DNA of 44,990 bases from Folioceros fuciformis (lineage: Eukaryota): assembly GCA_049999805.1 (NCBI GenBank), contig JBNGIO010006220.1:172975-217964 (forward strand), written 5' to 3'. Every line of letters starts with the position of its first letter. Positions within the stretch are counted from its first letter, which is position 1. The notes beneath the pieces were generated by a model that was given only the letters and a program-made list of their open reading frames with translations, searched no databases and was not told the DNA's origin. Made by a program: the position numbers and the translations under genes. This document shows positions 9,547-44,564 of this stretch, piece by piece.

Positions 9547-10331
9547 TCACACTCCTACTACAACAGGAGGAACAACAACAGCAGGAGCAGTCATTGTAGA
9601 GGGAACTGACAAAGAGTCTCTATTAGTAGATGGGTTTGTAGGAACATCGGAAGAAGAAGCTTTACTACTTTGATTGATTCCCAAGTAGTCCTGAATGACA
9701 ATAAGTGTGAAGTGCCAATCCACCAAGATAATCAACTCATGAAGGTAACTCTTAATGCGCAACATTTGGAGATCATTCTGAGGATCCAGTTCACGAACAA
9801 AGCTCCTCGCCATGGCTGCTAGACCAGGAATGTTCTGCTGGTACTTATGCTCGGATATTTCCTGTTCAACAGTCTTTGTACTTACTTATACACAAGGTTA
9901 CATGACTAGGAGTGGGAACACAAAACAAATGAACTAACTAGTACCTTCTTAATGGTGGACTTAAGAATGTTGCCATTTGCATCTAAGATTAGCAAGCCCA
10001 ACACATCCTAGGGGAAAGGGGGAACAACATAACACATACAAGCTACCAACATGAACAAGCAAGATATGCCCATATGGCTGGATTACATGAATTGTACTAA
10101 TAAAGAATAAAATATAATGTGATTTTTATGAGCAATGCCAATGCTATTGTACCTTGAAACTATTAATCCTTGCTAAAGCTTTTTCGGCATCGCCCTACAT
10201 AAAAATATGAGTGTACTTTGCATTAAATATTAATAAAATATATAGAAGTTTGAAGAGTTTAAAGAAAGATGTGAAAGTTAGGAACATTCATGATTTGTTT
10301 TGGTAGTCTTAGCCATGCATACACCTACCAT
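9547..10331 (-). CDS. DYNLRB: Dynein light chain Roadblock/LC7 family protein, ~140 aa. Exons 10331-10329 (ATG only), 10194-10153, 10007-9945, 9861-9547
   Basis: Spliced protein MGDAEKALARINSFKDVLGLLILDANGNILKSTIKKEISEHKYQQNIPGLAAMARSFVRELDPQNDLQMLRIKSYLHELIILVDWHFTLIVIQ matches the Roadblock consensus (ARS.VR.LDPQNDL..LRI.S..HE). Introns are GT-AG, phase 0. Confidence 0.88.
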
Positions 10332-10539
10332 ATTCTTCAAAAATAAAAGGTAGACCAAACTTCTTTAAAGATTATTTCTTAAAATAATGATCGTTTTATT
10401 TGGATTTGGAATCTGGTTATGATATGACACTCGTTCCAAACATCATTTGTAACTCAATAGACTTTATTAAGAGGAGAGATGGGAAATCCCATCTAAATAG
10501 AGAACTAAATATTCAACATTTATGGGTGATAATTTAAAT

Positions 10540-10639
10540 NNNNNNNNNNNNNNNNNNNNNNNNNNNNNNNNNNNNNNNNNNNNNNNNNNNNNNNNNNNNN
10601 NNNNNNNNNNNNNNNNNNNNNNNNNNNNNNNNNNNNNNN
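10540..10639. other. Assembly gap (100 N)
   Basis: Run of N. Confidence 1.
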
Positions 10640-11004
10640 ATACTGCTAACTCACTTGTTGATTTGTGGTTAGGTGATCCTAGCTGTGTGCGAGATAGGTT
10701 ACAATTGTATCTTTGATATATAATTTTATATATTTTTAATAAATAATATAAAGAGATAGTGATATCTTTATACTCAAGAAACACAGTTCTCTTGAAATTT
10801 TAGACAAGAAGAAGAGAAGAAGTTTTTTTTTAACAATTTTAATGTACAATATTATTATTATAATGTATAATAATTATATGGTTTATTTTATATTTTATAT
10901 CATATTACTGTATATTACTTCGTAATAAATCTACTTAAGGAAGTGGTGACACTTATATTTTTCTTGTTTTATTAAATAAATAAAGTATTCATGTATTTGA
11001 ATAA

Positions 11005-11066: not shown

Positions 11067-11398
11067 TAGTTACCTGTCACATGTGCATGAATGGTACCCA
11101 TGCGAACCGATTGGCATGGTTTTTTGTGAAAAGGGTTTAAATCGTCAACAGTGATGTTTGTTAAAACTTTAGAAGTTCCTCGGTGGCTCCACTGTCCGGG
11201 GCTTTGGACGGCGCCACAGGCTGTGCTTGGGACCGAATATTGTGGAGTAATGCTGCAAATGGAGGACACCGATGGGTTTGGGAAAACGATTCTTCGACCG
11301 CGAGGGTCTGCTCAGGTGATACATGCTCTGTTCAGCTGTTCCTCAAAGGTGTTTCAGCAATTGGAGAACGCTAGTCATTGTAGTAGTACCTATTGGTT

Positions 11399-12485
11399 AT
11401 GAGGCAGGCCTCGGCGCATGAATCTGTTCTGGAAGAGCTGGAGACTGCAGCTTCGGAGCAGCTGAATGTTGTCATTCAAGAAATGCGAGACGGCTACCAT
11501 GAACCTGAGTACGAGCACCTGGAGATGATTAGGCGGAAAACTGACGCTCTGTTGCGATCTACTCGAAGTGCTGCCGCTGAAGTGAAGGCCATTATAGACG
11601 GTGAGGTTTCTGGTTTGATCTCCGATACCAGAGCACTCGTGGTTTGTAGGGATAGTCAGTCTCTTGCTGCTTCCAAGTTGGTTTTGGTAGATGCAAGGGT
11701 TTATGGAGGGCAAATGATGGACAGACTTGGAAGAGCAAGTGCGCGTGGGGGAGGAAAAGCTTCGAGCTACAGAGGCGGAAGGTCTTGCCGATGAGGAGAG
11801 AGAGCTGATGGAAAACAGCCTGGCAAGCGCACGGGATGCTGAGAGAAAACTGCGCGGAGAAGCAAGATAAGTCCGCAGCGTTTGCTGCGATGCTTCAATT
11901 TTGCGTGATAGGTGTGCACAAGAAGGGCATTCCATTAGGTCGAATGTTGGGCTCGTTTTTCTTTGTCTGCTGACGGTGCGAGTAGAACCTGTTGAATTTT
12001 GCACAGTCATTGAAGAGCACGTGGAAGCCCTAGGCGAGCAGCTGGCATCAATCGGCAGGCAGAAGGAGGTCCTTAGCAAAGTTGACGCGGAGCAATTGCG
12101 GACGAAGTAAGCGCAGAGGGTTTTGCTTTATGCGTAGGAGTCTTTTTGGTCATCTCCACAGAGTGAGCCACATCTAGCTGGTGTGCTGTGCAGAAGGGAG
12201 CTATCGCTATTTTTGCAGCTAACGAAGACCGTTCCTCACAACGTTGGCAAGCCACGTGATGGTTTCATCACTGGGAGTATCCTTTCTCTGATTGTCATGT
12301 GTGAAGTCTGACAGATGTGAAGCCTGTTTCAATCCAGCACTCTCTCCTTTACTACCTACCTCGCAGACATCATTGTCGACAAAGAAAGGGACAAGACAGA
12401 GGTTTTCTGTGTGGATACCAAGAAACTTTCCCCCTTCGAGATTAGCAACTACCTCTGGGCCAAAGTAACTCAAACCGATTCTTAG
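11399..12485 (+). CDS. SPC24: Kinetochore NDC80-complex subunit SPC24, 215 aa. Exons 11399-11600, 11725-11866, 12005-12106, 12194-12276, 12367-12485
   Basis: Coiled coil followed by RELSLFLQLTKTVP...FITGNIIVDKERDKTEVFCVDTKKLSPFEISNYLW, resembling the plant Spc24/MUN C-terminus as I recall it. Exon sum of 648 nt is in frame and uses one AT-AC and one U12-type intron. Confidence 0.8.
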
Positions 12486-12668
12486 CATCATAAGAGAGAA
12501 TCCTTGGTGGAAGATTCAAGGAATGCTGAGCTAACTGAACAATGGCAGCGGACAATGCGTCCAGGTTCCTCTTAACCCGATCGAGTCAAGGCAGGTAGCG
12601 CATTCCCATGTTAACAGTAGCTCAGAGTATGAGACATTGGATGCAGACGATTCGTCCGTGGCACCAGT

Positions 12669-13517
12669 TCAGAGACCTTTGAGCACCTCAGAGAAGCCCG
12701 TCAGGTTTGACCATCTCTCCAAAGCCGAAGCCGAGACGAAGAAGGCGTTTTTGGAGCTGTCCGCTTCTTGCTTGGACACTGCAAGGGATTAAGGAGCGCA
12801 ACTTCAGGTACCACCAAAACAGCAGCAGGGTGGTACTAGCAGCCACGAGTGCCGGAATCACACATACCGGCAGTCTGCAGGTCCGACAAAGCCGAGGTAA
12901 ACGTGCTGGCTTCGGTCACCTCCTCAGGGCTAGAGCTCACCTGCACGACTCAAGGGAGCAGAATGTGCATGAGCACTGCTGGCACTACTTGCAATGCCGA
13001 ATTGTGAGGTTTCGAATCCAAACAACAACCGTTGGCGCACCTTGGACAGGGCCGCTTTGACATCGCTTATCCAGGCCTCACCGGCGCCGCTCAGCAGGCT
13101 GTTAGCCGCGGGGAAGTCACTCCCGTCCAGGGCCTGCCCCACCTTACTCAGCTCGTACACGGCGGCCTGCACCGACTCCGTCTCCTTCAGCAGCGACTTC
13201 ACTTCCACCCGCTTCTGGATCTTCTTCTGCCTCCCGGCCTTCACCTTCTCCAGCAAGTCGTCATCCTCGTCGCTCTCCAGCAGCGCGAAGGCAGGCTCCT
13301 CCCGCAGGAACAAGAAGAGCGACACCCCGGCCGCGGCTCCGACTCCGGCTCCCGCCACCAAATCCCTCCTGGACACGCTCCCGTTGGGACTGCCATTGCC
13401 ATCCTGCCGGCTCTGCTCGCACCGCACGGACAAGCAAGCGCTCGTCGCCGGCCGGAACGCCCTTCGAGTGTACGTAGCGCAAAACCGCGGCGCGCACACT
13501 CCGATCGCGGCCGCCAT
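12669..13517 (-). CDS. MPH2: Thylakoid lumenal 16.5 kDa protein (MPH2/TL16). Exons 13517-13041, 12940-12868, 12778-12669
   Basis: Transit peptide, twin-Arg SRRDL, hydrophobic core and AFA cleavage site, then LLESDEDDDLLEKVK...VYELSKVGQAL...AFFVSASALERWSNLTGFSEVLKGL. Confidence 0.9.
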
Positions 13518-13729
13518 TGCGCTGTGCACGCACTCCCCGATCCTGTTCCTCCCGATGGGTAGCAGCAACGTGGTCGCGCCCGAGCCCCACTAGCATTGCC
13601 ACCAAGCCACCGCCACGTGTCGGTCAGCCCGTCCCGGCTGGGATAAGCCCCCCGGCCTCGATCTGCCATCGCCCGAGAAACGAAAACGTCCCCGCCCAAT
13701 CCGTGCGGGCAAGCTTGTGCGATGGCGCC
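13518..13729. promoter_or_regulatory. Compact bidirectional promoter with G-box, I-box and CCAAT
   Basis: 212 bp between divergent ATGs; GCCACGTGT at 13612-13620, GATAAG at 13642-13647, CCAAT at ~13696. Confidence 0.55.
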
Positions 13730-29839: not shown

Positions 29840-32800
29840 ATGAAAATTGATCCCTCTCACTAGTACAGCCCGGGATTGTGATAGGAGCCATGGCGATTAT
29901 GCCTGAATTTTGTGCTTTCATGAAGCTATGAAGTAACGGCCTCAGGCAAAGGATCCAAGTGAGGGGACTAACACCGTGTGATCAGTCCCACCAGCGCGAT
30001 GCTTATCAACTGTCGGAGTCGTTTCTAGCAATATGGCATGCCGCGCCCTGATTCTCATTAGCCGCACATGGTTTTGTTTGGGAATCACATTGCATCGTGA
30101 GGTCGGGCAGGCGAGATGGATGGAGGCACCTCAACGCCGAAGTGACATCGTTCTTCCTGCGCTAAGCGCTGTGGAGTCTTTGTGGCCGATTTGCCCATGG
30201 TGCGCTGCACCCTGATCTAAGGATATTCACAACAAGGTCGTAAAGTTGGGCAGGGGATGGAAATGCCACCCCCATGGTGTGCCGCGCCCTGAACCATATC
30301 ACACGCGACACTGCAGCAACCATCAGCACCCTGAATTTTCGTTTTGGATCAACACAGGATTTTATGGGCAGCCGCTGTTCAAGATGCCTGCAGGATATCA
30401 TGCCTTATCATGATCTAGGGACGCCATGGTGGCAACAGCACTAGTAGGCCGTTGCGGCATCAATAGATTGCTGTGAGGGCAGCGGGCTCATGCACCTGCG
30501 CAAAACGGGTGCACGGTTTTTCCTCTTCGGCGTCATCGCTGACGGCATGGGAAAAACACGAGATTGTTTCAATGTTTTTTGGTGAAGATGTTGAGACTTG
30601 GGTGAAGATGCCAAGGCGGAGGGCCTCTTGCGCCCAACGGAGGAGTGTTTATTTTCAATCTCCTCCGACACTTAGATCTGCTAGGGATTCTACTTTCTCA
30701 TATTGCAAGTTGAAGGAACCCCGTGCCAGATCCTCCAGCGATTTTTCATTTCTTGCTGTGCGCTGCGCTGCATCTCGAAGTCGTATTCGACATCCTGTGA
30801 GCTCACGCTTAGTGCAACATCCATCTTTTCTAATTTCTCACAACTTGCGACGACGACAAATTAAGGATAATTTAAGGGAAGCCACTATCCAAATTCAAGG
30901 ACTCCAAGATGTTTTGTCTGGTCTCATTTCATGAGTTCAACAGCTGTTTTCGTTGGCTACCCCGTTTGAAGAGGAAAAGCGCATGCATCTGACTCAGCTA
31001 CTTTCACCGGAACGCTCATGCGTACCCTATCCTTAACATTTGAAGTTTGGACATGCAGCCAGGTTCGCCCTCAACAAGGTTCAGAGAATCAAATGAAGGC
31101 GAAGATTTGGACCTTGGCAGATTGGATTTGTAGGAGGAAGTTGCTTCACCTGTTGTCGATTCCACAACTGGCATCGATGAACAACAAGCAGCATCTCCTT
31201 CTTCTGAATTTTTGAGAAGTTATTGGGGCAATGTCCCTCAACCCAGCCCAGGCACTGATAGTAATTTTAGCACATCTGGTGTTCCTTCTCCTACAGCATG
31301 CAACCCTGCTGGTTTCGCAAGCACCCTTGCAGGCACGGTAGGCTACCCTGTTGCTGGAGCTGGACATTCTACTGGACAAGCTGTAAACTCAAGAACCAAC
31401 ACATCTCAACAACCTGTGCCTCGTGTCAACACCCTTGCGCAAGCTATGGCAATCACTCCAGGTGCCTTGAAGATTGATTTCAAGGACAAGGACCGCTTTA
31501 ATGCTAATGATTACCACATCTGGGTGATGAGGCTGACCCAGATTTTGGAGGAGCATGAGCTCATGTCCGTCGTGGACGAGACAGAACCAAAACCAGCAAC
31601 ACAACCCAACAATGCAAATCCTGCTGATATACTTGCATGGCAAAGGAAGGATAGGAGAGCCCGGTCGATCCTTTTGGCACATGAACATGATGCCGCATAC
31701 CATGGACGTTGACACTTTAGCATCAGTTTGGAACAACTTCAAACTCATTTATAGAGATAAGAGTTTTGTTTCCCTTGTGTTAGCAGGATTTTTTCACTAT
31801 TCGAATGAAGGATAATGAGTGTTGAGTCTTACATCAAAAAATTTCGCACAACTCGTGCGACTCTTGCATATTGTGGGACTATCTCCATTGAGTTTCAAGC
31901 TGCTATTTCATTTTTAGCATCTCTACCTGACAAATAATTCTCAGTTTATCAATCCTCAGAATGCTACTCTTCAAGCCGTTGGACCTGGTGCCAATGTAAC
32001 GTTGGAGTAGGTATTTGGAGCTTTGATTGCTGAAGAACGCCGGAGGAGCCTTCACAAGTCTAAGCCCAACACGTAGCAAGGCACCAGAGTTTTATTTGCC
32101 TCAAAAGGACGTGGAGGCAATCAAGGCAGAGGATGTGGGGGCTCAGCATGAGGAGGAGCTTCAACCTCTCAACAGCCCTACCTTCAAAGGCATACCTTCA
32201 CTTGCAACTGGTGTAAAATACCCGGTCATTTTGAGAAGGACTGCAGGAAGAAAAGGGCTAGTGAGCCCAGGAAGGAAAGTTCAAGTTCCATTCCAGAATC
32301 CAATGTAGCCACGTCTAAAGGTCTACCCAAAATACCCTCCATCTTAGCATTTTGCTTATCTTCTGTCCTAATCTAGAATGACATGTGGTTCCTTAACTCA
32401 GGGGCAACCAGTCACCTCTGTTTTGATAGGAATGCTTTCACTGTTTTTGACCCTACTCTAGATCATCACCAATTTGTTCTTTTAGGTGATGACAGTGGTT
32501 TATCCATTAAGGGAACAGGATTAGCCAAGATACAGCTTCTTGACACTTCCTCACTTACAATCACAGGTGTGTTGTTTGTCTCATCCATGACCAAGAATCT
32601 CATGTTAGTTATGAAGCTCACAGAGGAACATTCTTGTAGAGTTTGTTTTGACCATATAGGTTGTTCTGTCATTAGCAATAGTATTGCACCTGACTTATTC
32701 ACAGGGACACCTTTTCATGATTTGTACCTTCTAAATGTCAGAACTTTGTATAGTCCACTGACAACTGCTGATGTTACTCAAGCTTCTGGTCTCTCTCCAA

Positions 32801-35799
32801 CTCAGCTTTGGCATTGTCGATTACGACATGTAAATTTTAATAGGCTTTTCACTTTAGTCAATAATTCAATTTTTAGAGACCCCTTGTCTTTCTCTTTTGA
32901 TAATCGAGCTTTTTGTGACTCCTGTCAATTGAGCAAGGCAATTTCACAACCTTTTAGAGACCAAAACTTGTCAAGAGCTACCAGCCTCCTCCACACTGTC
33001 CATATATGTGGTCCCATGTCAACCATGTCCTTTGGTGGAGCATCATATTTCATCACTTCTATTGATGAGTAGAGCCGCTATTGTACAGTTTTTGTTCTTG
33101 CACACAAGAGTGCAACCTTGTCATGTTTCTAGACGTATTTAGCTTCTGCTCAGTGTCAGTCAAGTCATCAGCTGAAAATTCTTAGGATTGATAATGGAGG
33201 TGAGTATACAAGTAATGCCTTCACCGAATTTTGTGCTAGAGAGGGAGTTCTTCATCAATTTACAGTTCCTTATACTCCAGCTCAAAATGCTTTCGCAGAA
33301 CGCAAGAACAGGACACTTCAAGAGGCTACACTTTCAGCTTAGCATTTGCAGACCTCACTAGGGGATACTTGGCTGAAGCCCGTATGGCAGCTAATTATGT
33401 GCAGAACAAGTTGCCTACGAAGGAGCTTGGTTTGGTTACTCCTTATGGGCGTTGGACTGGGAAGAAGCCCCGCATTTTTATTGGTTATTCAGACGAGGTA
33501 AAGGGAGATAAGCTTTTTGATCCAAGTCCTCGGCAATTTCTTGGAGTGTTGTTTTTCATGAAAATGCTCTTCTTCGACGTTATGATGATGCTTTGGATCC
33601 TAGTTCTTTTGACTCTACTGTTTCTATTCATGGAGTGGATGACCTAGCTGATTACAATACTAATGCTGATATTGATGTGTCTATTTTTTATACTAATGAT
33701 GTTTCCAGTTCACCTTCCTCGGCTTCAAGGGGGGCTACAACATCCGGATCACATGCACCAGCTTCCCTAGCACCTGAATCTTCTCCACCAGATGAGTCTT
33801 CTACAGTTTCCTCCTTTGATGAACCCTTGGAAGTTGATCCTATTGTTGTTCTTGATTCTGACCCTTCGTCTGAACCTGAGCCCTCACCTGATCCAGTTGA
33901 GCCTACACCTGAGCCAATTTTGCGTAGATCTACACACTATAGACCACCTCGTAGTGAATGTTCTGAGCCACCTTTTGTAGCTAGTCTAGTTTTAGATAAG
34001 AATTTTGATACTTTTGAACCAGCCACTTATCAGGAAGCCATTTCTGGTCCTGAGGCTGAACACTGGCGAAAGGCTATCACGTCTGAGTATGATTCCCCTA
34101 TAACCAAAAAAACCTTGAAATTAGTTGATTTACCCAAGGGCCGCAAGCTTGTTGCTTACAAGTGGGTCTTCAAGAAGAAGTTGAACACTAACGGTAGTGT
34201 AGGATGTTATAAGGCCAAGTTAGTTGCTAAAGGCTAGAGTCAGGTAACAGACCTAGATTATAACCAAACTTTTTCCCCAGTTGTTAAATCCACCTCCATT
34301 AGAATATTGCTTTCCTTGGCTGCCATTATGGTCTTTATGTACATCAGCTGGATGTGAAGACTGCTTTCTTAAATGGGTCCTTAGAGGAGGAAATATACAT
34401 GTCCCAGCCGGAAGGTTTTGTAGAAGATGTTAACAAAGTTTGTCAGTTGCTAAAGACTTTATATGGCTTAAAAAAATCAAGCAGAGCTTGGAATGAAGCT
34501 TTCCATGCCTTACTTATTGAGCTTGGATTTACATGTCTTGATGCCGACAACATTGTTTATGTCTTATGGGACGGCACAAATTTTCTTATTTTGACAGTTT
34601 ATGTTGATGACAACATTTCATTTTGTACCTCTACTGCACTAATGGCCTGAATCAAGAGTGTTTTGCTTTCTTGCTTTGACATGTTCGACTTGGGCCAACT
34701 TAGCTTTTCACTTGGCATACAATTTCACTTCTCTGAGGATAGGCATATTGTCGAGATACATTAGGAGCATTTCTTGAATCAGCTTTTGCAATGTTTCAAT
34801 ATGGCAGATGCACATCTTGTTGCTACTCCTATGTCAACAGGAGATAAATCCAAGGAGCAACGCCCCTCAACACAAGCTGAAAAAGATATTATGGCAACTC
34901 GCCCTTATAGGCAAGCTGTAGGTAGCCTCATTTATCTTGCAGCATGGACGCGTTTAGATATAGCCAGGGCTGTTAGTAGTGTTTCTCAATTTTAGAAAAT
35001 CCAGGGGAAGGTCATTGGACAACCGTGAAGAGGATTTTTAGGTATCTCAAGGGCACCCCTAGATTTGGACTTACATACTTCAAGGAGCCTGCTGGTTTAA
35101 TGCTTACTTCATATTGTGATACTGATTGGGCCGGAGACTCGGATAGTAGGAAGAGTGTTGCAGCCTATTGCAATTTACTTGTTGGATCTGTGGTTTCTTG
35201 GTCAAGCAAGAAGTTGACTACCATTTGCTTATCATCTATGGTGGCCGAATATGGAGCTATGTCACAAGCAGCAAGAGAAGTAATTTGGATACGTTCTTTC
35301 TTGAGAGGTATACAGCAACTGCCATCAAGTGCTACAGTTTTATGGTGTGACAACCAATCTGCTATTGCACTCTCAAAGAACCTAGTTTTTCATGCGAGGT
35401 CGAAGCATATTGAGATTACTCGTCATTTTATAAGACAAGTTGCTAGTACTAGCGAGGTGGAAGTTCGTTGTATTCCAACAAGTGACAATATTGCTGATTT
35501 GCTTACCAAGGCTCTAGCTCGAAATTTACATACCAAGCATACTTCAGAAGCTGGTCTCAAACTCATTGCAACTGTGGCCAAGATTGGCACTGCACAATAA
35601 TTTGGTATCTTGGTCAACGCAATGGATGAAGCTGTAACGTTTGTGCTAGTTGTGCGCTACTCAACAACAACACTAAGGCCAAAACCCTCTTTAAGAGCTT
35701 AAGAGGGAGCTAGTTGTATGTTTTGGGTTTTGGTGTTATGGTTTACATTAGCCTATTTTTCATATTTTCCTTACTATGATTATTTCAACTAAGAGGGAG

Positions 35800-42100: not shown

Positions 42101-44564
42101 TCTTGGAGGAACCAAATATATATTATCCTTCGTGGACGATTGGAGTCGAAACACCATCACCTACTTCATCAAAAACAAGAGTCAAACACTAGGCTGCTTC
42201 CAGGAGTACGTGACTTTTGCACAAAGGTAGACATGAGAATTGGTGAAAACCTTATGGAGTGATGGTGGAGGCAAGTATTGCTCAGAAGAGTTCGACAGCT
42301 ATTGTCGTTCACTTAGCATTGCTTGCCAAATAACTGTCCCTTATACCTCAGCACAAAACCCGCTGGTGGAACTTAACAACAAGCATCTGCATCAAGCTGC
42401 GAAATCCTTGCTCAAGGTATCTGGCTTGTCCAGAGGATATTGGGCAGAAGCTGTTGCAACTGCAAATTATATAAAAATGCGCCTTCCAACAAAGGCCTTC
42501 GCTGGTGCTACTCCATATGAAAGGTGGACATCACATAAGCCACGTATTAATCACCTCAAAGTCTTCGGCACTCCAGCCTATGCTCACTTGGTAGAGGACC
42601 AACGAGTCAAGCTGGATTATAAAGCCCGAAAATATGTGTTCGTTGGCTATACTGAAGGTATCAAGGGGTACAAACTCTATGATCCTGATACTCGCACCAC
42701 TACGCATGCTAGAAGTGTGCTCTTTAATGAACTTGCATTGCTTGAACCACCACAACTGGCCCCACTGAGCACACAAGCGTCTGGCAGTCATTCAGATGAC
42801 ATAGATACATATGAACAGTCACCTGAACAGGAAGCAACTCCTTAGATAGCTGTACCACCTGGACAGTCATCCAGTCCACATGCTGCAGCCTCCATTCCAG
42901 CCATAGGACAACCGGGCTCACAAGACACACATGTTGAGGAACTTAGCTACTTCCCTGATGATGATGTGCCAAGTCAAGTCCCTAATGTCCAAAATATGGA
43001 AAACAATGATGCTGGTGACCCTGAACACACAAGTAGTGACAGTGGTTTAGCACAAGTGGAAGACAATACGATGCCCTATACAGAGGTATATGTACCTGAA
43101 GAACCTGTAAGAAGAAGTGCAAGGAGGCATACAGCGTCACCTGATGAGTTGCAGACACCTCCCCTGACATATAGTTCATTTTTGGTAGAGGACCAAGGAG
43201 AAGCAGTGGACTTAGGAGAACCATAGTCTTACAAGGAGGCAGTTAACTCACATGAAGCTACAAAATGGCAAACAGCCATTCAGTCAGAATATTAGTCCTT
43301 AATAGACAACAAAACTTGGGAACTAGTAGACTTACCTGTGGGCCGCAAGGCAGTAACATGCAAATGGGTGTTTAAAAAGAAGTTAGCCCAAGATGACTCA
43401 ATTGCTAGGTATAAGGCACGCCTTGTTGCTTGGGGATATAGTCAGGTAGAAGGCCTGGACTACAACGAGACCTTCTCTCCTGTATTCAGAGCCACTTCTG
43501 TTAGAACCCTACTGGCCATAGCTGCACAACATGACTATAAAATGCATCACATGGATGTGAAGACAACATTTTTAAATGGTACCTTAGAAGAAACCATCTT
43601 CATGCGGCAGCCCGAGGGGTTCGAAGATACAAAATATCCGAACAAGGTGTGTAGACTCATAAAGACTACATATGGCTTGAAGCAGTCACCAAGGGCCTGG
43701 TACAATCGTATTGACCAATACCTCAAGGACTTTGGATTCCTACAAAGTGACTTTGACAGCAATGTCTATAAACTATACGACTTAAATGGGGTTGTATACG
43801 TGGCACTATATGTTGATGATGTAGTCATCATCACCAGTAACTCTGCACTCATGGAAAAGGTCAAAAATATCTTGACATCTGAGTTTAGTATGACTGACAT
43901 AGGTCAACTAACATATTTCCTAAGTGTACAAATCGTCCAGAACCTAGCACAACATACAGTCTTTATCCATCAAACGCAATTTATTAAGCGAGTCCTAAGT
44001 AAGTTCAGGATGCAAGACTGTAAGCCTGCAACAACCCCTCTAGCTGTAGGTGATAAACTAACACTGGACCAGTGTCCTAAGTCAGAAGAAGAGAGGCAAA
44101 AGATGGAGTTAGTTCCATACAAATCTGCAGTCTGCACACTCATCTACTACAGAAACTGGACTAGGCTAGAGCTGTCCCATGCAGTAGGAGCCACTGCACA
44201 ATTCCTGACAAATTATGGAAGCCCCCACTGGGCAGCCGTCTAGAGAATAATGGGATATTTAAAAGGAACACCAACACTTGGTCTCTTATACACGAAGCGG
44301 CCAGAGAGGCTGCTACTTACATGTTTCTCTTACGCCGATTGGGCTGCAGATAGTGACACCAGGAAGTCGATATACGCCAACTGCCTACTTATGGGAAAGG
44401 ATGAGTACAACTCGACTATCATATCCTGGTACAGCAAAAAGCAACATATCGTTGCCCTCTCCTCTACCGAGGCAGAGTATGCTGCAACAGCTACAGCAGC
44501 ACAAGACGTGGTGTACACAAGATCGCTCTTGTCCTCCTTGGGAGAAGACCTAATGGATTAGTTA
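39159..44564 (+). mobile_element. Decayed Ty1/Copia retrotransposon (element 2), interrupted in RNase H; 3' LTR outside the window
   Basis: Putative 5' LTR at 39159-39407 (TATAGA...TCTATA) and PBS variant TGGTATCCAAGCC. Gag starts at ATG 40128, followed by PR (WYLDSCASAH), LWHYRLGH, VHSDLCGPM, RT (YVDD) and RH (YADWAAD, VALSSTEAEY). Gag is related to element 1 (LKI(D/E)FK(D/E)KD.F). Confidence 0.93.

Follow-up and report, generated by a model that had tools for sequence, protein, structure and literature searches.

An AT-AC intron with U2-type splice signals, joined in transcripts, in a Spc24-like gene

Introduction

Within the window (the whole stretch of DNA analysed here, 44,990 nucleotides) a reading frame for a coiled-coil segment runs on the plus strand into the letters ATAAGT and resumes beyond a 3′ end in AC. 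The locus raises the question of whether an intron with AT-AC ends is removed here and, if it is, whether the major or the minor spliceosome acts on it. A preliminary description of the sequence had proposed such an intron, with U2-like and not U12-like signals, in a Spc24-like gene, and both the transcript junctions and the motif counts reported below agree with that proposal.

Few working forms of intron are as rare as the U2-type AT-AC intron. Sheth et al. counted 24 in a survey of 610,067 introns from five species, in which Arabidopsis, with 112,445 introns, had none (PMC1557818). Annotation-based figures given by Moyer et al. for four plants range from 0 to 0.05% of U2-type introns (PMC7367187), and AT-AC pairs of all kinds are reported to account for 0.06% of the splice-site pairs of plants (PMC6310983). 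Our literature search, which had supplementary tables outside its scope, turned up no work on AT-AC introns of bryophytes and none on the introns of SPC24 in plants, and the literature it found on SPC24 with a minor intron or U12 was animal work only. The intron described here is transcript-verified and most likely a new case of this documented, very rare class.

Results and discussion

Transcript junctions at the AT-AC intron

The intron and its two ends lie as follows.

11864..11872, + strand: 5′ splice site AAG/ATAAGT, read from the window
11867..12004, + strand: AT-AC intron, 138 nt, phase 2; joint 11866^12005 in 4/4 runs
12003..12006, + strand: 3′ end AC/AG, with the AC used and the adjoining AG unused

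On the plus strand, positions 11997-12006 read TTTTGCAC followed by AG, and TTTTGCAC ends at 12004. The frame upstream of the intron reads ...GAA GCA AG and that downstream, from 12005, A GTC ATT GAA. The frame was said in the preliminary description to run into ATAAGT and to meet a TAA if left unspliced, and this is what the window holds: read unspliced, the frame continues as AGA TAA, with the in-frame TAA at 11868-11870. Retention would indeed end translation, as had also been proposed, with the stop coming after 134 codons. The further suggestion that retention could act as a regulatory switch found no support beyond this TAA, which is trivial in that it forms part of the consensus donor AG/RTAAGT in a phase-2 intron and is therefore no evidence for a switch.

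A search for sequencing runs with 11200-12700 gave 22 candidates, and four of them were aligned to the window at 80% likeness, namely X1 (organism A, P1), X8 (organism B, P4), X2 (organism B, P2) and X18 (organism C, P7). X1 contained 0.56 of the sampled words of 11200-12700. All 22 runs were labelled RNA as a guess and none is recorded as RNA; however, the contigs skip five introns exactly, from which we infer that they are spliced cDNA. In each of the four runs, which come from three organisms and four studies, one contig carried the joint 11866^12005, skipping the 138 nt from AT to AC. This was the junction that the preliminary description had singled out to be sought in transcripts with non-canonical joints allowed. 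The X1 contig agreed with the window without a single difference along 970 letters, and the contigs from organisms B and C differed from it at roughly 6-8% of exon letters. The AT and AC termini are the letters of the window, organisms B and C being known at this joint from mRNA alone. Evidence at the level of contigs is blind to rare isoforms and to retention, and the zero coverage of the inside of the intron by contigs, found in 4/4 runs, is uninformative on retention.

The joint itself leaves little choice of intron ends. Only two placements give the identical mRNA, AT..AC and, one base to the right, TA..CA, so that no GT-AG or GC-AG reading of it exists. Moreover, the two sides of 11866^12005 have a single base (A) in common, so that the joint is neither a repeat-mediated template switch nor a slip of reverse transcription or assembly. 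It might still be supposed that this is a true GT-AG intron and that the window is in error at the first and last intron base. The mRNA junction would then be identical, G at 11867 and at 12004 would restore a perfect canonical AAG/GTAAGT ... TTTTGCAG followed by A, and the intron letters come from the assembly alone, the contigs covering exons only. However, two independent and compensatory errors (G>A and G>C) would have to fall exactly at the terminal bases of an intron whose flanking exons agree with the X1 contig at every one of those 970 letters, and we regard sequence error as highly improbable.

Gene model and coding constraint

The joints in the contigs and the spliced open reading frame (ORF) give the following gene model.

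11250..11315, + strand: coding exon 1, with ATG 11250 and a second in-frame ATG at 11259; joint 11312^11405, 'GT..AG cut +3', in X1, X8 and X2
11316..11407, + strand: intron 0, 92 nt, GT-AG, phase 0; skipped in X1, X8 and X2
11408..11600, + strand: coding exon 2, from contigs and spliced ORF
11601..11724, + strand: intron 1, 124 nt, GT-AG, phase 1; joint in 4/4 runs
11725..11866, + strand: coding exon 3, the coiled-coil segment, ending with the AG of an AGA codon
12005..12106, + strand: coding exon 4, from contigs and spliced ORF
12107..12193, + strand: intron 3, 87 nt, GT-AG, phase 2; joint in 4/4 runs
12194..12276, + strand: coding exon 5, from contigs and spliced ORF
12277..12366, + strand: intron 4, 90 nt, GT-AG, phase 1; U12-type by motif
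12367..12485, + strand: last coding exon, with stop TAG at 12483-12485; bears the Pfam Spc24 match

The spliced ORF comprises 234 codons, from ATG 11250 to TAG 12483-12485, and is open only once spliced. The coiled-coil exon, numbered 2 in the preliminary description, is the third coding exon, there being one more coding exon and intron upstream. A start-like ATG of the unspliced DNA, at 11399, lies inside intron 0. The last three introns (138, 87 and 90 nt) are multiples of three in length; the last four exons (11725-12485) therefore share one genomic frame, which only five intronic stops interrupt.

Differences between the organisms bear on which reading frame is in use. There were 40 listed differences and 17 more, and 21 of the listed 40 fell in the coding sequence. 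Codon position 3 accounted for sixteen of these 21 (binomial P = 7e-5); taken singly, 15 were synonymous. This third-position bias marks the frame produced by the AT-AC joint as the frame under purifying selection. A crude, home-made heptad count points the same way for the protein: in windows spanning the joint 7 of 8 core positions are hydrophobic in one register, and by the same count the register is continuous over about residues 106-161.

An open frame by itself would have been a poor guide. When GT-AG, GC-AG and AT-AC ends from 11740-11959 were paired with those from 11960-12079, 91 of 516 pairings kept the frame open, including GT 11782 with AG 12006. The sequence alone is therefore indecisive, and it is the transcripts that decide. 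The canonical donor of that pairing is the following.

11782..11787, + strand: weak canonical donor AAG/GTCTTG; with AG 12005-12006 it is in frame and gives 205 aa, 29 residues shorter

For the ATAAGT donor the acceptor CAG at 12004-12006 is out of phase by computation, as the preliminary description had it. That description had also named transcripts running from AAG/GTCTTG to the CAG ending at 12006 as the finding that would speak against an AT-AC intron; the main contig was without that joint in 4/4 runs. One could nonetheless propose that the functional mRNA is made by GT 11782 and AG 12006 and that the AT-AC product is a by-product, since this pair is in frame, organism B has minor contigs with a joint close by, and GT-AG and U2-type AT-AC introns with 3′ sites 3 nt apart are reported to compete in an Arabidopsis reporter (PMC5473141). 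However, the main contig uses the AT-AC joint in all four runs, and the 85 bases that the canonical pair would remove evolve as coding: all four of the listed differences in 11782-11866 are at codon position 3, so that the segment lost in the canonical alternative is itself coding. In addition, loss of the 29 residues shifts the heptad register by one, and the donor GTCTTG is weak. It is hardly conceivable, on this evidence, that the canonical pair makes the functional message.

The minor contigs were found in organism B only. Within 11684-11777 they cover 11691 or 11725 to 11777, continue with 12009-12038 and end in at least 255 letters unlike the window. The one in X8 is 599 nt long with a depth of 36.7 (main contig, 266.3) and the one in X2 438 nt with a depth of 11.5 (main contig, 50.3). 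Their joint, 11777>12009, is near, not at, the canonical 11781^12007, and they may be chimeric, stem from a partial paralogue, or represent an alternative isoform that has mismatches where the pieces meet.

Repeats near the splice sites, whether direct or inverted, were all short. The longest was a direct similarity of 22/29 letters between the acceptor and exon start of intron 1 (11713-11741) and those of the AT-AC intron (11995-12023). When the two are set in register, the CAG that closes the intron in the 11713-11741 copy aligns with the unused CAG at 12004-12006. The similarity may be due to chance.

Junction, open frame and coding constraint at the AT-AC intron are thus all observed. For the reading as a whole, in which 11867-12004 is a genuine AT-AC intron with U2-type signals that a Spc24-like kinetochore gene loses constitutively from its transcripts, we put the probability at about 0.82.

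Identity of the gene

The last exon matched the Pfam family PF08286 (Spc24) at an E value of 1.2e-4, its 22.7 bits falling short of the gathering cut-off of 25.3, over profile positions 79-108 of 109. The input to the Pfam scans was unjoined exons or read-through translations, of which 2/5 pieces matched in one scan and 2/2 in another. This single match, below the threshold, makes it likely that the gene is Spc24. In Spc24 proteins a long N-terminal coiled coil precedes a small C-terminal globular domain, and the crude heptad count given above concerns the coiled coil only. A word search for homologues with the read-through translation of exons 3-6 gave 816 candidates, none at E <= 0.01; the same translation had 0 matches among 1.84 billion representatives and 0 chains at E <= 10 in the PDB. 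Two scans of metagenomes for orthologous DNA returned 422 pattern matches, none of which was confirmed, and 0 exact matches. As a Spc24-like kinetochore gene it is presumably essential and probably single-copy, and the plant, if a hornwort, is probably haploid-dominant.

Splice signals of the AT-AC intron

U12-type introns are defined by highly conserved donor and branch-box elements. We compared the intron with both sets of signals, the counts given here being simple matches to textbook consensus strings. At positions -2, -1 and +2 to +6 of the U2 5′ consensus the AT-AC intron matched at 7/7, and the other introns of the gene at 4, 4, 5 and 2 of 7. Its donor is therefore the best of the five, departing from the U2 consensus only at +1 (A). 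Sheth et al. define AT-AC II introns by a 5′ site which, but for the A at +1, is a good site of U2 type (PMC1557818), and by the 7/7 consensus matches the present donor is of that kind. In the branch region a motif match gave the following candidate, which the preliminary description had placed at about 11968.

11969..11974, + strand: candidate U2-type branch site GCTGAC, with the A at 11973, 31 nt before the intron end; a T-rich run precedes it

The U12 donor ATATCCTT, by comparison, was matched at only 2/8 of positions +2 to +9, these being the shared TA. The best likeness to the U12 branch box TCCTTAAC was 5/8, lying 37 nt from the 3′ end, and the next was 4/8 at 7 nt; by consensus match, no U12 branch box stands at the usual distance from the 3′ end. 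The intron is most likely U2-type ('AT-AC II'), the acting spliceosome being judged from these motifs. A point against this assignment is that the U2 spliceosome is said to recognise AT-AC introns poorly (PMC7367187).

An intron of the minor, U12-dependent class whose signals have degenerated would also carry AT-AC ends, which are typical of A-type minor introns. Since the gene also has a clear U12-type intron, its pre-mRNA is already a substrate of the minor spliceosome, and vertebrate SPC24, a minor-intron gene (PMC6865273), has an A-type intron reported to be retained on loss of CENATAC (bioRxiv 10.1101/2020.08.06.239418). Against this stand the 2/8 donor and a best branch box of 5/8 placed 37 nt from the 3′ end, and we consider minor-spliceosome removal of 11867-12004 quite unlikely.

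Other features of the intron RNA were sought. The fold of the intron with its flanks was not special (z = -0.36), and a tRNA scan gave 0 hits. Rfam models matched nowhere in the whole window at the gathering score, nor in 11200-12700 at E <= 1, which argues against a snoRNA hosted by the intron.

Taking the intron as U2-type, its removal could proceed as follows. U1 would pair with AAG/AUAAGU, to which it is complementary at all consensus positions but +1, and U2 would bind the CUGAC branch site, with the presumed branch point 31 nt upstream of the 3′ end. In the second step, A at +1 would be compatible with a terminal C and not with a terminal G. In yeast and human a G1>A change is reported to be rescued when the final G of the intron is also changed to C (PMC1557818), and such an interaction of the first and last nucleotides would account for the choice of the AC at 12003-12004 over the AG that lies two bases further on.

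A U12-type intron in the same gene and the origin of the AT-AC intron

Both rare intron kinds occur in this one five-intron gene. The donor of intron 12277-12366, GTATCCTTT, matches the U12 donor at 8/8 (RTATCCTTT consensus), and its branch box, TCCTTTAC, matches at 7/8 and ends 14 nt before the 3′ end (CAG). By motif it is a textbook U12-type GT-AG intron. Its junction was present in X1, X8 and X2; in X18 the joint lies 2 nt rightward, at the two letters for which the spliced window would give another reading.

Vertebrate work links SPC24 expression to this class of splicing: SPC24 is described as the sole minor-intron gene down more than 2-fold on U11 loss in mouse cortex (bioRxiv 10.1101/182816). 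In human, 10 of 15 AT-AC II introns are reported from sodium-channel genes that also hold U12-type introns (PMC1557818). The co-residence of the two classes seen here thus has a precedent, which leaves room for an origin of the AT-AC intron by conversion of a minor one.

Two routes to the present intron can be compared by their letters. From AAG/GTAAGT...TTTTGCAG followed by A, two substitutions would lead to ATAAGT...GCAC, and this would be the simpler origin. From ATATCC at least three donor changes and loss of the branch box would be needed, which appears less simple. Under the second route the intron would be a former U12 A-type intron, now handled by the major spliceosome with its ends kept, and one of two ancestral SPC24 minor introns, possibly the homologue of the vertebrate A-type intron. 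We keep this reading in view because of the U12-type neighbour, the sodium-channel precedent and the small likelihood that two rare classes meet by chance; if true, an AT-AC intron would here have passed directly from one class to the other. However, the U2 spliceosome is said to recognise AT-AC introns poorly, and for that reason Moyer et al. take the AT-AC conversion route to be largely closed (PMC7367187). On balance, we think conversion an unlikely origin.

Comparison with known systems

Among the closest known parallels are the vertebrate AT-AC II introns of SCN4A, SCN5A and their paralogues, which share with the Spc24-like gene the AT-AC termini, an otherwise good U2 5′ site and the presence of U12-type introns in the same genes. 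They differ in gene family and kingdom, and in that a need for the major snRNAs was shown experimentally for them, whereas the class of the present intron is read from motifs. A plant counterpart is the Arabidopsis GFP reporter of Kanno et al., likewise with a U2-type AT-AC intron overlapping a GT-AG intron, the 3′ sites being 3 nt apart there and 2 nt here (PMC5473141). The reporter is a transgene; its AT-AC form is reported to be in the minority (about 17.5%) in wild type, and of its two 3′ sites the AC is the outer one (PMC5473141). The Spc24-like gene, in contrast, is a natural gene, its main contigs show the AT-AC form, and the AC is the inner of the two sites.

The vertebrate SPC24 A-type (AT-AN) U12 intron probably belongs to the same gene family, has AT-AC termini and is described as making expression depend on rare-class splicing. 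However, it depends on the minor spliceosome, whereas 11867-12004 is without U12 signals. The same holds for plant U12-type AT-AC introns (DROL1/TTL-dependent in Arabidopsis), which have like terminal dinucleotides; their donor and branch motifs are absent from 11867-12004.

Gene predictors can be tested on this intron, as they would otherwise cut the Spc24-like gene short or join it wrongly. Since an unused AG lies two bases from the used AC, it also lends itself, as a naturally occurring substrate, to work on how the first and last nucleotides pair in plant splicing, and the presence of AT-AC and U12 introns in one gene offers a way into the question of how rare classes of intron originate and change into one another.

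Genomic surroundings

An ORF of the MPH2 family (E 1.5e-10 to the Pfam entry MPH2, Maintenance of PSII under High light 2) lies at 12933-13589 on the minus strand, convergent with the Spc24-like gene; its presence identifies the genome as that of a plant. The X1 contig (3636 nt) continues beyond 12700, and the 3′ ends of the two genes may therefore overlap. Other neighbours in the window are a Phe-tRNA synthetase fragment and an FGAM-synthase amidotransferase domain. Pieces of Copia-type retroelements were found at 32377-33069 and 43296-44240, with Pol beta-barrel, GAG-pre-integrase and RVT_2 (E 4.9e-79) matches. Directly upstream of the gene, the stretch 10001-11000 is very AT-rich, with a GC content of 0.25 against about 0.5 around it.
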